A stretch of DNA of 46,874 bases from a phage. The stretch is from the sequence record PZ445467.1; one strand, 5' to 3'. Positions 2,736 through 23,337 of the stretch are shown here, piece after piece (positions within the stretch are counted from its first letter, which is position 1; every line of letters starts with the position of its first letter). The notes beneath the pieces are model-generated. The model was not told the DNA's origin and ran no database searches. It saw only the letters and a list, made by a program, of their open reading frames with translations. The position numbers and the translations under genes are program-made.

Positions 2736-4148
2736 ATGTCAAAAATTGATGCATTAAACGCCTATATACGCGACCGCGTGGCGAACAATAACCGGGCGCT
2801 TCAGCAGCAGCGGCTTTGTGCTGGCGGGAAGAATCTGGACCAGAAACGTGAGTTCATGTGGAAGGAACTGGGCTACCCGCAGGAAATAACCGCCGAGATG
2901 TTCCGCTATGCATACGAGCGACATCCAGCCGCCGCCGCTGGCATTAACCGCATTATTAATAAATGCTGGCAGAAATATCCTGAAGTGGTCGAAGATGGCG
3001 AGGATGATAAGAACTCAACGCCGTGGGAGTTGTCCATCAACGATATGATGAAGCGTGCCTATCCGTTCATCAAAGAGGCCGACAAGCGCAACGCCATCAA
3101 CAGATACTCCGCTGTTATCCTGCAAATCCGCGATGGTCGCCAGTGGAGTGAGCCGGTAGACATCACCAAAACCCGCCGCATTAAAGATAAATCCATTGTT
3201 CGCTTTATCCCAGTATGGGAAGAGCAACTCCGCGTCAGCGCATGGAATAACGATGAAACAAGTGAAGACTACGGCATGCCTGAGATGTACGAATATCAGG
3301 AAAGCGCCGTAGAGGATTTCGATAGCGACGGCAAGCCTGAGCGTTCCGTGCAGATTCATCCTGATCGCATTATCATTCTGGCAGAGGGTAGCTTCGATGG
3401 CAGTATGTTCAGTGGCATCCCGATGCTACGTGCTGGCTACAACAGCCTTATCGACATGGCTAAGGTTTCCGGTAGTTCAGCAGAAGGCTTCCTGAAGAAT
3501 GCCAGCCGTCAACTGGCTGTTAACTACACGAAGGACAACGTAACGCCAGCAAGCCTTGCACAGTCAATGGGTGTATCTCAGGATGAGCTTATTGACATCA
3601 TGAATGACAATATCGAGATGCTGAATTCTGGCATTGACGCTGCACTATTTAGCATGGGCGCCGAGACTCAGGTGTTATCCGTAACGCCAGCTGACCCGAA
3701 ACCAACATGGGAAGTGGCTGCCAACCAGTTCGCTGCATCAATGGCGCTTCCGTTCACCGTCATTTTCGGGCAGCAAACCGGACGCCTTGCGAGTGATGAA
3801 GACAAGATGCAGGAGGCGATGACTGCCAAGCAGCGCCGAGAAACATGGGTGGATTATGTTATCTCAATGTTCGTTGAGCGCATGATTCAGTTCGGCATCG
3901 TCGATAAAGCACCGGAAAATGGCTACAAGGTTAAGTGGGACGACCTGCTTGCTCCATCAGAGCTGGATAAGGCGGAGTTGCTGTCTAAGCTCGCCACTGC
4001 GAACAAGTCGTTCTTTGATGCTGGTCAATCTGCGTTGCTTACCGTCGATGAGGCTCGCGGCATGGTTGGTATGGAGCCGATTGAACTTGATGAAAGTTAT
4101 CGCGAAGACACGCCACCGGAAGATGAAAATGAAGATACTCCGGTTTAA
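2736..4148 (+). CDS. portal protein
   Basis: 470-aa ORF in the canonical position downstream of terL; size typical of portal proteins. Confidence 0.7.
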
Positions 4149-5082
4149 CGCAAGACTTCCGCAGCCGCGCATATCGCAGAGCCTGACCGACCCGTTAGGC
4201 GCTGCAACCCGCATGTCGAAGATGGACAAGGTGATAACGCGCAAATATAAGCAACTCAGGACTCGTGCGCTTGAGTTGTTTCGCACCATTCCGCATAGTC
4301 AGACTAACGCAGAATCAAGCGGTCTGTATTTCTATGATTTCAGTAGTGCGCGCGCCGCTACTTTCATGGATGAGTTGCAGGCGCTGATTGACGAGATTCT
4401 GCTGGAAGGTGACGACTTCAGTCACGGCAGGATGTGGGCCAATGTGTTCATCGGTGATGCGTATCAGGCAGGAACGCAGAAGGCCAACTCTGAACTATCA
4501 AGCCTGTCTCCGGTTTATGCCGAGCAAAGGCCTATTGCCGCGATACTCTACAGTGAGCCATATCTGAATCGGCTGCGGCTTGCGTATACAGCTGGTTACT
4601 CGGACTGGCGAGGATTGAGTGATTACTCACGCCAACAACTGGCATCCGTCATTATGGAAGGCATTGCCCGTGGTGCCAATCCTCGAGATGTTGAGGCTGA
4701 TATTGTTAAGCGTGTTGACGTGTCACATAGTTACGCGAAGCAGATAGCGCAGACTGAAATCACCGGAACGCTGCGGCAGGCTAACAGGAGAGAAGTCATT
4801 GAGGCTCGCGAGGAATTAGGTATTGAAACGGTGATGCTGTGGCAATCGGCATTATTGCCTGGTCGAACGAGATTTACTCACGCGGCACGGCACGGGCGGT
4901 TTTACGCGCCAGAGGAGATTGACACGTTCTATAGCGAGAATGGCAATAGATATAATTGCCACTGTGCACAAGTACCAACATTGATAATGGATGGCAAGCC
5001 AGTCATTCTTGAGTCGTCGCAGGAAAGGCTTGATAAGCAGCGTGAAGCGTGGCAATCAGCCAATAAAAAGCCCTCTAAGTGA
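4129..5082 (+). CDS. head morphogenesis protein (Mu F / SPP1 gp7-like)
   Basis: ORF overlapping portal 3' end; ATG 4129 has GGAAG 6 nt upstream (alternative ATG 4123 or 4213); position and size fit MuF-like minor head protein. Confidence 0.6.
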
Positions 5083-11602: not shown

Positions 11603-11787
11603 GCGAACCAAAATTTCCAGAGCTGCCTGTTGAGGTTCAGGTTGCATTGATCAATGCGGCAAGTGCAATGGCGACAAAGAAGATTGAGGCAATAGGCAGT
11701 GATTACAACAGGAGCATAGACTGGTTTCAGAGGGAGTATCAAAAAATCTGCGACGCACTCTACAAAGAAAACAGGGGTAGATCATGA
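11599..11787 (+). CDS. hypothetical protein (62 aa)
   Basis: ATG start, coupled to neighbours. Confidence 0.45.
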   Translation: MSEPKFPELPVEVQVALINAASAMATKKIEAIGSDYNRSIDWFQREYQKICDALYKENRGRS

Positions 11788-11930
11788 TTCCATTACTGTG
11801 GATATTATCAGCATACGCATTCGCAAGGGTATTTGAGGCTGACACTCTGTACCAGATGATTTGCTATGGCGCTCTGTTCTGCCTATCTGGTGCTGCACTT
11901 GCATTTATGGATGATGTGATTTCAGACTAA
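11784..11930 (+). CDS. small hydrophobic membrane peptide (48 aa)
   Basis: ATGA overlap with previous stop; MIPLLWILSAYAFARVF...GALFCLSGAALAF hydrophobic segments. Confidence 0.4.
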   Translation: MIPLLWILSAYAFARVFEADTLYQMICYGALFCLSGAALAFMDDVISD

Positions 11931-11950: not shown

Positions 11951-11989
11951 TCATGGGCTGCTATCATTTAATCAGGAGGTAGCCCATGA
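11951..11989 (+). promoter_or_regulatory. 9-bp perfect stem-loop enclosing the SD and pairing with the start codon of the downstream peptide ORF
   Basis: TCATGGGCT (11951-11959) pairs with AGCCCATGA (11981-11989); loop carries AGGAGG. Confidence 0.5.
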
Positions 11990-12108
11990 ATATAATCCCT
12001 ATCACTTACTTTCTCACGCTGTACGCACTCACCAATTCGCCATTGTTTGCACTGGCTACCGCCTCATGGTGCTACATCTCCCTGTGTTATAATTCGACCA
12101 CAAACTAA
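11986..12108 (+). CDS. small hydrophobic peptide (40 aa)
   Basis: ATG 6 nt after AGGAGG; MNIIPITYFLTLYALTNSPLFALATASWCYISLCYNSTTN. Confidence 0.4.
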   Translation: MNIIPITYFLTLYALTNSPLFALATASWCYISLCYNSTTN

Positions 12109-12124
12109 CCGTGGAGAGTTAACC

Positions 12125-14004
<1,880 letters not shown>

Positions 14005-14006
14005 TA

Positions 14007-15077
14007 ATGGAAAAGATTATTTTTACCAAAGACCTGGTAGCCAACTCCGCAGTGGTGGCTGACCAGTGGAAACATCTGACCATCGACCGCAAGGTGTTCT
14101 GCAATGCAGAAGCTGAACTGGCGAAAACATACGGTGTTAACGCCACCGCACTGGTAACGAAAGATTACTGGCGCGACGTGGATAACGTCACCACCCGCGT
14201 TTTCCGCAACGAAGCTGGTCAGGACATGATGGCTGACCTGATGGGCATCGCGGCAAACATCAACATCGGAAAGACTGTGGCAATCAGCCGCATTGCTTCC
14301 GATGCTGGCAAGGTAGTCCGCACTCTGTCTGGTCAGGAGCCGGAAGATTTGGATAAAACTCGCTACGATTACACTGGCGATGTGATCCCAATCTTCAAAA
14401 CTGGCTACAGCCGAGAATGGCGCGAGCTGCTGGGTATGCAGTCTGAAGGCTTCGACCCACTGCTGGACGATCAGGCCAACGTCACCTTTAACCTGCGTTC
14501 CGACATGGCGCAGTATCTGCTGACCGGCGACCAGACTCTGAACGTGAACGGCGTTTACACTGGCTATGGTATCACCAACCACCCGAACACTGTTCAGGTT
14601 AACCTGAATGCTTCCGGCGGCCTTAATATCGACCTGCAAACTGCAACGCCAGACGAAATCGTGACCTTCTTCAATCAGGATTTCCAGGCTATTCTGGATG
14701 CGCAGAACGTATTTGAGCAGGTGACTCTGTGGGTTTCTCCGGCAGTGCGTCGTAGCTTCATGCGTCCGTATTCTGATGCGGCAGGCTTCAAAGGCGGCAC
14801 TGTTGAGCAGTACATCACGCAGTTTGGCAATGGTCGCATCGGTAAGATTGGCACCAACTTCCTGCTGACTGGTAACCATTTCGTTGGCTACGTTCGCAAC
14901 GACATGTACATCCGTCCGCGTGTTGCTCAGCCAGTTTCCACCTACGCGGCAGCTCGTGCCAACCCGCACGATAACTTTAACTTCCTCGTGTGGTCTGCTT
15001 TTGGTTTGCAGATTCGCAAGGACGCCACTGGCAAGTCCAGAGTGTTCAACGGCTACGGTACGCAAACTCCGGTGTAA
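14007..15077 (+). CDS. major capsid protein
   Basis: 356 aa; GGAG SD; position after scaffold/decoration genes; terminator follows. Confidence 0.7.
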   Translation: MEKIIFTKDLVANSAVVADQWKHLTIDRKVFCNAEAELAKTYGVNATALVTKDYWRDVDNVTTRVFRNEAGQDMMADLMGIAANINIGKTVAISRIASDAGKVVRTLSGQEPEDLDKTRYDYTGDVIPIFKTGYSREWRELLGMQSEGFDPLLDDQANVTFNLRSDMAQYLLTGDQTLNVNGVYTGYGITNHPNTVQVNLNASGGLNIDLQTATPDEIVTFFNQDFQAILDAQNVFEQVTLWVSPAVRRSFMRPYSDAAGFKGGTVEQYITQFGNGRIGKIGTNFLLTGNHFVGYVRNDMYIRPRVAQPVSTYAAARANPHDNFNFLVWSAFGLQIRKDATGKSRVFNGYGTQTPV

Positions 15078-15320: not shown

Positions 15321-15348
15321 AAAACCCGCATCATGCGGGTTTTTTATT
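15321..15348. terminator. bidirectional rho-independent terminator
   Basis: stem ACCCGCA/TGCGGGT flanked by A-run upstream and TTTTTATT downstream, between convergent genes. Confidence 0.65.
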
Positions 15349-21497: not shown

Positions 21498-21542
21498 CAA
21501 TCTACACCACAAAATAATCACTGTCAACACCTGTGATATAAT
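21498..21542 (+). promoter_or_regulatory. promoter of major tail gene with ATCTAC motif
   Basis: motif 21498-21510; extended -10 TGaTATAAT at 21534-21542; GGAGA SD before ATG 21579. Confidence 0.5.
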
Positions 21543-22732: not shown

Positions 22733-22923
22733 TTTTTATCGTCGCTCTTAACTAATGCCCAAACAAGCGCGGCGACCCAGCCAATAAAACTCCATCCAAC
22801 GAGAATATTCAGTACGCAGATTGCAGTCGTGTTTACGTGCTTGCGTTGCAGAGCCACAAAAGATGGCAGGAGGTACGCAAATATCACCAACCCAACAAAA
22901 AACAACAAAATAACGACGTCCAT
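22729..22923 (-). CDS. superinfection immunity-type small membrane protein
   Basis: 64 aa; RKHVNTTAICVLNILVGWSFIGWVAALVWAL matches the LLGW..IGW..AL.WA signature; GAGG SD. Confidence 0.55.
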   Translation of the reverse strand: MDVVILLFFVGLVIFAYLLPSFVALQRKHVNTTAICVLNILVGWSFIGWVAALVWALVKSDDKK

Positions 22924-23287: not shown

Positions 23288-23337
23288 GAATCTACATCAC
23301 CACCTCGCAGGTGTCAACACCACTGAGATGATATAAT
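23288..23337 (+). promoter_or_regulatory. promoter of tail chaperone/tape measure operon with ATCTAC motif
   Basis: motif 23288-23301; GTCAACACC element; extended -10 TGaTATAAT 23329-23337. Confidence 0.5.

Follow-up and report, generated by a model that had tools for sequence, protein, structure and literature searches.

The phage DNA of sequence record PZ445467.1 (46,874 nucleotides; this whole stretch is called the window below) carries, between positions 11,951 and 12,108, a 40-codon open reading frame (ORF) for a hydrophobic peptide. The Shine-Dalgarno (SD) sequence and the start codon of the ORF are enclosed in a stem-loop, and a head-assembly gene, called the scaffold gene here, follows closely. 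The locus raises the question of whether so short a frame is a gene at all and, if so, what a hairpin lying across its ribosome-binding site (RBS) does: is it a brake on translation, a switch, the end of an upstream transcript, or something else? The phage is a siphophage of the Guernseyvirinae; the region shares 99.6% identity with Escherichia phage SandraMuster_Bas78 (Bas78) and 89–95% with many Jersey/K1G-like siphophages of Salmonella, Escherichia and Shigella. Judged by its substitution pattern and distribution, the ORF is a real, conserved gene, and we read the hairpin, with a probability of roughly 0.55, as a constitutive translational attenuator of a small membrane peptide, an effect on translation that is argued from thermodynamics.

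A stem-loop over the ribosome-binding site

The segments TCATGGGCT (11951–11959) and AGCCCATGA (11981–11989) are perfect reverse complements, 21 nucleotides apart. Direct reading of the letters bears out these arms and loop, AGGAGG at 11974–11979, the ATG at 11986 and the 40-codon ORF, just as an earlier prediction made from the sequence (the original prediction) had described them. RNA folding extends the stem to 12 bp, pairing 11951–11962 with 11978–11989 through pairs that include two G-U and 5 G-C, and adds two further inner pairs (11964–65 with 11975–76). The hairpin has a minimum free energy (MFE) of −20.4 kcal/mol and a z-score of −2.95 against dinucleotide shuffles, one of 200 of which was equally stable, so the folding calculation that had been proposed as a check came out in favor of a stable stem.

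All parts of the element are on the plus strand. The 5' arm, UCAUGGGCUGCU (11951–11962), appears in both the MFE and the centroid fold and contains an internal anti-SD-like sequence. It is followed by a loop of 15 nucleotides (11963–11977), which holds the two inner pairs and leaves the first part of the SD exposed. The SD itself, AGGAGGU (11974–11980), is read directly from the sequence, stands 5 nucleotides ahead of the AUG and is kept in nearly all variants. In the folded RNA the 3' arm (11978–11989) comprises the last two G of the SD, the spacer, the AUG (11986–88) and the first base of codon 2. Bases G11975–76 and G11978–79 of the SD are thus paired and A11974 and A11977 unpaired, and the spacer and the AUG are paired, the latter with a pairing probability of 1.00.

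A perfect 9-bp stem with a loop of 3–40 nucleotides is not rare in itself: the window gives 20 k-mer matches of this kind, from about 15 distinct stems, against 6.1 ± 3.1 in shuffled sequences. What goes beyond chance is the placement over the RBS, the top stability among starts and the conservation in all relatives. The local fold is the most stable among the 64 SD-bearing ATG starts of ORFs in the window (−20.4 kcal/mol, against a mean of −9.7 and a standard deviation of 3.6 kcal/mol). By the energy needed to open the RBS it ranks third of the 64 (16.9 kcal/mol, against a median of 7.6), and the two starts above it belong to short unannotated ORFs that are probably not genes. The SD is exceptional as well. 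AGGAGGT has one other match in the window, at 22868, which is probably not an SD because the Bas78 genes annotated in that stretch are on the minus strand. Taken as a general class, an RBS-sequestering attenuator hairpin has bases of the SD or start codon in its stem at a real gene, a stability above background and a conserved structure, and each of these is found here.

How might such a hairpin act? Being part of the sense mRNA, it would work in cis, hiding the second half of the SD, the spacer and the AUG. The stem would have to open before a 30S subunit could engage, and initiation would be strongly and constitutively damped; the strong SD, partly exposed in the loop, would allow a small residual rate of initiation. 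The outcome would be a low dose of the peptide, which presumably inserts into the inner membrane. Beyond a threshold of stability, initiation is lost about tenfold for every 1.4 kcal/mol. General thermodynamic reasoning of this sort suggests a damping of several orders of magnitude. That the hairpin lowers translation, the size of that effect, the insertion of the peptide into the membrane and a low dose as the purpose of the arrangement are all things that we infer. A role as an RNA thermometer was rejected, as the stem is continuous over 12–15 bp and, at −17 to −29 kcal/mol at 37 °C, too stable.

Conservation of the hairpin and of the 40-codon frame

The comparison covered 74 related loci from IMG/VR and further contigs, which fall into close relatives of the window (clades A and B), a clade of Klebsiella phages with about 79% scaffold identity (clade C, with a sub-lineage C2) and a fourth lineage, D. 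Each of the 41 unique contexts from clades A, B and C folds into a hairpin over SD, spacer and AUG, as does lineage D; the energies run from −17.5 to −25 kcal/mol for clades A and B and from −21.5 to −29 kcal/mol for clade C, and lineage D has −16.9 kcal/mol. A stem that failed to be conserved would have spoken against the original prediction; the hairpin is there in every unique variant of the four lineages. Measured on fixed structures, standard pairs occupy 99% of the pair cells in clades A and B and 96% in clade C, compared with 30–53%, and in one instance 71%, when the partners are slid against each other. In all 15 distinct variants of clades A and B every stem position is paired, the terminal pair excepted. 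Away from the base of the stem, the substitutions are one-sided transitions that preserve pairing (G-C to G-U, U-A to U-G, G-U to A-U or G-C), and breaks in pairing occur only within the first one to three pairs at the base. Indels change the SD-AUG spacer by two nucleotides in clade C and by one in lineage D, and the 5' arm matches it through a shift of register; native combinations of arms are 2.6–9.6 kcal/mol better than chimeras between clades. By these comparisons the hairpin is strongly conserved, short of formal proof by covariation.

The strand of the conserved structure can be told from its pairs. In 36 of 36 variants the sense strand has the more stable fold, with a margin of about 7–8 kcal/mol over the antisense strand. 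Only the sense RNA folds well because the stem uses G-U pairs, and the weaker antisense fold therefore points to a structure that the mRNA itself forms and speaks against a DNA palindrome or an antisense RNA. A palindromic DNA operator, for example for a MarR-like regulator encoded upstream, was rejected on the same grounds, that is, the G-U pairs, the wobble-type substitutions and the antisense deficit. With a conserved, sense-strand-specific hairpin over SD and AUG, translational control, as first proposed, is the most natural reading.

The loop tells a different story from the stem: it accepts transversions and changes of length, and both its length and its sequence vary among clades. This bears on the idea that the hairpin is an operator at which an RNA-binding protein of phage or host tunes translation, like the MS2 coat protein at the start hairpin of the replicase gene. 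The two hairpins are built alike: the start codon is part of the 3' side of the stem, and the loop is exposed. Outside the SD, however, the loops of the clades have diverged in length and sequence (AUCAUUUAAUC, UUGCAC/UUGCAU and AUAGC), no candidate RNA-binding protein was identified, and we give this idea very little weight.

The gene behind the hairpin (11986–12108, plus strand) corresponds to the hypothetical protein Bas78_0037. The ORF has exactly 40 codons at the same place in four lineages (MNIIPITYFLTLYALTNSPLFALATASWCYISLCYNSTTN, the window peptide, in clade A; MPIILISFFATLFAFTASPLYLLASVSWCIFMVCYNPGIK in C; MPIILISFFATLFFLTMTPIYFLASFSWCIYLLCYNPCIK in C2; MFIIPFAFFATLTLLSPSALYALAAMAWLYMMVCYNPRIN in D). 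The original prediction called the peptide largely hydrophobic, and this agrees with a grand average of hydropathy (GRAVY) of 0.74 and no charged residue in the window version; the versions of other clades have GRAVY values of 1.26–1.48 and one charged residue. An AlphaFold (AF2) model, with a predicted local distance difference test score (pLDDT) of 74.5, gives a helix at residues 3–16, a break at 17–18 beside a frequent Ser-Pro motif and a helix at 19–39.

Polymorphisms within clades concentrate at third codon positions, independently in two clades. The ratio of synonymous to non-synonymous changes is 23:16 in one (p = 4e-6) and 30:23 in the other (p = 2.5e-7) in frame 0, and the other two frames give p = 0.35–0.98. 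Between lineages, at 38–44% nucleotide divergence (23% for C against C2), the NG86 omega is 0.12–0.46 and the other frames hold stops. By tblastn the ORF is found in 201 phage genomes, of about 206 that have a scaffold protein at least 60% identical, and it is usually unannotated there. The synonymous excess confined to frame 0, the low omega, the fixed 40 codons and the presence in 201 genomes are the reasons for calling the ORF a real gene.

Could the frame be open for other reasons, with conservation due only to an embedded promoter and other RNA or DNA signals, and no peptide made? The end of codon 33 and codons 34–36 do coincide with a promoter-like element, TGTTATAAT, most annotators did not call the ORF, and among the contigs one is frameshifted and one lacks the stop. 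Such signals would not produce a frame-specific synonymous excess that extends across the whole ORF, a third-position bias arising independently in two clades, an omega well below 1, or a frame open at exactly 40 codons in four lineages with the other frames stopped, all behind a perfect SD at ideal spacing. We regard an untranslated ORF as highly improbable.

The peptide has no family match in Pfam, PHROG, NCBIfam or PADLOC, and profile searches of 5.8 billion and 1.84 billion proteins returned its own family only; in a whole-library search this meant its three cluster representatives. Relatives at 38–40% scaffold identity (Mannheimia 587AP2, Cronobacter ENT47670 and Klebsiella phage 2) have other genes, or none, at the position of the peptide. 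On these searches the family is an undescribed and narrow one, confined to Jersey/K1G-like and related Klebsiella phages.

A probable promoter in the last codons and the surrounding genes

The original prediction placed the ORF directly upstream of the scaffold gene. The position is correct, the stop codon lying 16 nucleotides ahead of the ATG at 12125; the co-expression that it suggests is called into question by a conserved extended −10 element within the 3' end of the ORF. This element, TGTTATAAT (12085–12093, plus strand), spans the last two bases of codon 33 (Leu) and codons 34–36 (Cys-Tyr-Asn): the codons TGT TAT AAT, with the TG of codon 33 before them, make a perfect extended −10. The motif TGnTATAAT occurs four times in the window, against 1.7 expected, always on the plus strand (2691–2699, 12085–12093, 21534–21542 and 23329–23337), and each copy ends 21–37 nucleotides ahead of the start codon of the portal gene, the scaffold gene, the major tail gene or a tail-chaperone-like gene before the tape measure gene. 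The distant Klebsiella phage YX3973 (L082) has the motif at the same four genes (378, 2226, 28342 and 37769) within diverged flanks. Homing-endonuclease insertions that delete TGTTATAAT bring their own TGATATAAT, at the same distance from the scaffold gene.

The recurrence of TGnTATAAT at structural genes and its replacement by TGATATAAT make it probable that TGTTATAAT is the promoter of the scaffold, decoration and capsid genes, which would therefore have a promoter of their own, with a transcription start placed near 12100. It would follow that the peptide gene is the last cistron of the upstream rightward unit. In mechanistic terms, the scaffold-decoration-capsid transcript would start from the last codons of the peptide gene, and the latter would be tied in position to the head module and yet regulated apart from it. 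Selection on the promoter, no less than on the peptide, may explain why Cys-Tyr-Asn is invariant. Published work on Guernseyvirinae gives promoters and terminators in silico only, and strand-specific time-course RNA sequencing of Kagunavirus K1B4 (PRJNA939978 / PRJCA028359) assigns classes at the level of genes only (PMC12645636).

The four TGnTATAAT sites look like a dedicated class of promoters for structural genes. The two sites at tail genes also share the upstream motifs AATCTACA and TGTCAAC. At the portal gene, TGCTATAAT is followed directly by a hairpin and T-run, cccatccaacgtgatgggatttttt (2691–2725 for the whole); in Bas78 the stem differs in a compensatory way (ccctcc/gaggga), and YX3973 has retained it. 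A terminator of this form would stop upstream transcripts, and transcripts from the overlapping promoter, lacking its 5' arm, would escape it.

The rightward unit begins in a promoter-rich divergent region at about 9.31–9.41 kb. It runs without a terminator to the bidirectional terminator AAAACCCGCATCATGCGGGTTTT (15321–15343), a 10-bp stem with T-runs on both strands that closes the head-gene unit. A second hairpin, at 12064–12128 (−19 kcal/mol, z = −2.3), pairs the SD and AUG of the scaffold gene with codons 27–33 of the peptide ORF. These codons lie upstream of the predicted transcription start, and so only read-through RNA would have its scaffold RBS masked. Against controls with shuffled upstream sequence in eight representatives, this second hairpin was significant in one and borderline in two, and in YX3973 it gave z = +0.28.

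The separate promoter at the 3' end of the ORF is also one of two observations behind a further explanation, namely that the RBS hairpin is a polarity insulator: with ribosomes blocked, about 120 nucleotides of C-rich, G-poor RNA would be left naked, and Rho could load on it and end early read-through before the late head genes, whose expression would come from the embedded promoter. The other is composition, since the ORF region has 32% C and 13% G and a C-minus-G excess at the 99.7th percentile of 100-nucleotide windows on the plus strand. Clade C shows far less of this bias (25% C, 17% G), and a rut function would leave the purifying selection at the amino-acid level unexplained. We consider polarity insulation very unlikely.

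The genes on either side are as follows. In Bas78 the peptide ORF lies between a 48-residue hypothetical protein and a 470-residue protein that precedes the decoration and major capsid genes. The gene of 470 residues (12125–13537, plus strand), scaffold or prohead-protease-like, matches PHROG 760 with a weak match to head maturation protease, and relatives label it variously as coat protein, prohead serine protease or DUF2213. Head decoration (13537–14004, PHROG 766) and major capsid (14007–15077, PHROG 771 / DUF6260) genes follow on the same strand. The first 38–45 residues of the scaffold-like protein (12125–12256 in the window) form a separable module, present in the window's clade and the Klebsiella clade and absent from Jerseyvirus-type relatives and lineage D, whose proteins start MNRLQVNVL or MKKLQVN (compared in L022–L036, L071 and L091). 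Between the peptide ORF and the scaffold gene, several contigs (L025, L064 and L083–L085) carry a DUF723 homing-endonuclease-like gene (MPKKMTIDELKEK...) on the opposite strand, for example at 3138–4535, minus, in L083. In some contigs the insert replaces the last 11 codons of the peptide and the first 44 or so scaffold codons, and it has a bidirectional terminator and its own TGATATAAT. Among the records compared, OR544125.1, NC_042037.1 and others named for Acinetobacter phage vB_AbaM_AB4P2 (94.6% identical to the E. coli/Salmonella group), Aeromonas phage pIS4-A and some Vibrio phages fall inside enterobacterial clades, which suggests host mislabelling or contamination in those public records.

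Upstream of the hairpin is a 48-residue hydrophobic ORF (11784–11930, plus strand; phrog_18423) with two hydrophobic segments. It is present in clades A, B and D and absent from the Klebsiella-phage clade, and for this reason it stands outside the conserved module of hairpin and ORF. The hairpin sits in a 55-nucleotide intergenic gap at a mosaic junction. Mosaicism of the upstream DNA reaches as far as the 5' arm: in clade C a 62-residue ORF is missing as well as the 48-residue one, phage ASO78B lacks the 62-residue ORF, and contig L044 has unrelated sequence there. Despite this, the hairpin and the peptide ORF stay together in all loci.

Such a position, together with a GC-rich core, would also suit an element at the end of the upstream transcript (a weak or non-canonical terminator, a stem that protects the 3' end, or a processing site) whose overlap with the RBS is secondary. 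In the ASO78B record, in fact, the authors used WebGeSTer and labelled this very hairpin a rho-independent terminator, with no ORF called at the site; the records of ST1UNAM and YX3973 (RefSeq) have no annotation over the stretch of the peptide ORF. A canonical terminator was rejected, as the stem lacks a following U-tract in every clade (downstream of it stand AAUAUAAUCCC, CCAAUCAUAC and UUUAUUAUCC, and in the window the letters just 3' of the stem are AAUAUAAUCCCUAUC) and a terminator scan does not report the hairpin. The bona fide terminators of the genome (15321–15343 and 2700–2725) have T-runs. A role at the transcript end would also have to accommodate a 3' arm that is the RBS in all four lineages and a 5' arm that follows the changes in the SD-AUG spacer, and we think it rather unlikely.

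The hairpin as a proposed brake and its likeness to known systems

Several points weigh against a constitutive brake. Its effect on translation is predicted from thermodynamics, and to combine such a brake with a maximal SD looks wasteful; a switch that answers to some trigger could be at work instead. No double-sided compensatory change was found at any pair within clades, and shuffle controls were uninformative. The cross-clade chimeras are still fairly stable (−15.8 and −17.8 kcal/mol), the two stem registers being related by slippage. About one quarter of the clade C variants leave two bases of the AUG, U and G, without a partner. As for the gene, contig L048 has a frameshift in the peptide ORF, and in contig L039 CAA stands in place of the stop codon, which makes the peptide ORF run on, in the same frame, into the scaffold gene (clade C has both genes in frame with each other, the window does not). 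These two contigs could reflect sequencing error or be a sign that the ORF is dispensable. In P0005 the last 11 residues are replaced through a homing-endonuclease insertion, and the C-terminus of the peptide, at least, may be dispensable. Variant P0007, with its junction after codon 19, is set aside as a probable chimeric assembly, being a short contig that joins genes normally found elsewhere and on the other strand.

If the hairpin were a triggered switch, the read-through mRNA would be inert, and the peptide would be made only from RNA shortened by processing of the 5' arm or from a promoter within the hairpin. Endonucleolytic removal of the 5' arm has its model in type I toxin mRNAs such as hok and tisB, and a promoter embedded in the hairpin has its model in T4 e and soc. 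The strongest SD of the window is joined here to its strongest RBS hairpin, a design typical of switches. Moreover, TGCTATCAT (11959–11967, 5' arm and loop) resembles an extended −10, the pattern TGnTAnnnT recurs in clades C (TGTTACCTT) and D (TGTTAACCT), and extended −10 promoters are apparently used elsewhere in the phage. The TA..T motif can, however, be explained as an automatic by-product of complementarity to GGAGGUA, the clade A variants L015, L024, L008 and L014 lose the TG or weaken the hexamer, and a transcript beginning near 11974 would have its SD at the extreme 5' end. Nor could a conserved processing signal be identified, and neither an antisense RNA signal nor toxin-family homology was found. 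We regard a switch as unlikely, if less so than the other rival readings.

Of similar standing, and put forward tentatively, is a bolder proposal: that the peptide is a dose-critical membrane effector (for example a toxin-like depolarizer, a factor in lysis timing or superinfection exclusion, or an anchor that ties head assembly to the membrane) that is unlocked from inert mRNA by processing, an internal start or a bound factor. If true, it would be a phage-borne, antisense-free counterpart of type I toxin control beside a head-gene promoter.

Two forms of coupling to other translation were considered and rejected. An ATG at 11953, in the 5' arm, opens a 9-codon upstream ORF that ends with UAG 3 nucleotides before the main AUG; this upstream ORF lacks an SD, and clade C preserves neither its start codon nor its reading frame. 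Coupling to a ribosome terminating on the upstream gene would need a steady distance from stop codon to stem, and this is not conserved (20 nucleotides in the window, about 9–10 in clade C and 19 in L044). A holin with an sdi-type dual start was rejected too, as the peptide has a single start (MNII...), C-termini of NSTTN, PGIK or PRIN, and a place outside the lysis cassette. Holin, endolysin and spanin genes are elsewhere; the cassette lies about 3–4 kb upstream of the peptide gene and has its own holin.

The toxin likeness drawn in the original prediction does not amount to family membership. By size and hydrophobicity the peptide does fit what is expected of type I toxins (less than about 60 residues and hydrophobic): it has 40 residues, a GRAVY of 0.74–1.48 and 0–1 charged residues. 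No homology to toxin families (Hok/Gef, Ldr, TisB, Ibs, ShoB, Zor etc.) was found in Pfam, NCBIfam, PADLOC or PHROG, and the hairpin has no match in Rfam, so that membership is unsupported by these comparisons. The search for an antisense RNA, which had been proposed alongside, likewise came back empty in sequence scans. The sole promoter-like match on the minus strand (12017 to 11989, 9/12) is at chance level (3 found, 3.4 expected) and absent from clade C; no terminator was found on the minus strand, in scans that cannot rule out a non-canonical small RNA; and the antisense fold, as noted above, is the worse one throughout.

The significance of the locus lies mainly in the gene. A real, near-universal gene of 40 codons, mostly unannotated, is added to about 200 genomes of Jersey/K1G-like and related Klebsiella phages, many of which are candidates for therapy or biocontrol. 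An RBS hairpin that was mislabelled as a terminator in at least one genome can be corrected, and a probable class of extended −10 promoters would organize the expression of structural genes in these phages. The locus also offers a clean case, open to experimental test, in which the RBS for a putative small membrane peptide is strongly occluded. The control mechanism is conventional, as RBS-occluding hairpins are known from MS2, from T4 e and soc and from type I toxin mRNAs; the peptide family is an undescribed one.

How, then, does the arrangement compare with systems already known? To a rho-independent terminator, as annotated in ASO78B, it is alike in being a GC-containing stem-loop in an intergenic gap and unlike in having no U-tract and in overlapping a functional-looking RBS. 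The S holin gene of lambda is controlled by the sdi stem-loop and a dual start, and here, too, an RNA stem lies at the RBS of a gene for a small phage membrane protein. The present peptide has neither a dual-start motif (it begins MNII or MPII) nor a charged C-terminal tail, and its gene is not in a lysis cassette. With type I toxin mRNAs (hok, tisB, ldr, ibs, shoB and zor) it shares a short hydrophobic ORF of fewer than 60 codons whose SD or start is sequestered in the primary transcript. It differs from them in that no signal of an antisense or small RNA and no sequence relation to toxin families was found, and in its setting, since it is part of an operon in a virulent phage and belongs, almost universally, to the core genes of its clade.

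In T4, RBS hairpins silence the early read-through RNA of genes e, soc and I-TevI, and late transcripts start inside the hairpin. The likeness extends to an SD and AUG paired with an upstream segment, to a gene downstream of an earlier transcription unit and to read-through RNA with the full hairpin; unlike e and soc, the present locus has no convincing promoter between the arms, its well-supported promoter lying at the 3' end of the ORF. A further parallel is found in constitutive attenuator hairpins such as the RBS hairpin of the MS2 coat gene, where, by the relation of de Smit and van Duin between stability and translation, the stability of the hairpin sets the rate of initiation. The present hairpin, at about −20 kcal/mol, is far beyond the range of that measured relation, and it has a maximal SD. 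The two are alike in being simple local stem-loops that contain SD and AUG, and the mechanism proposed for the peptide gene is the same.

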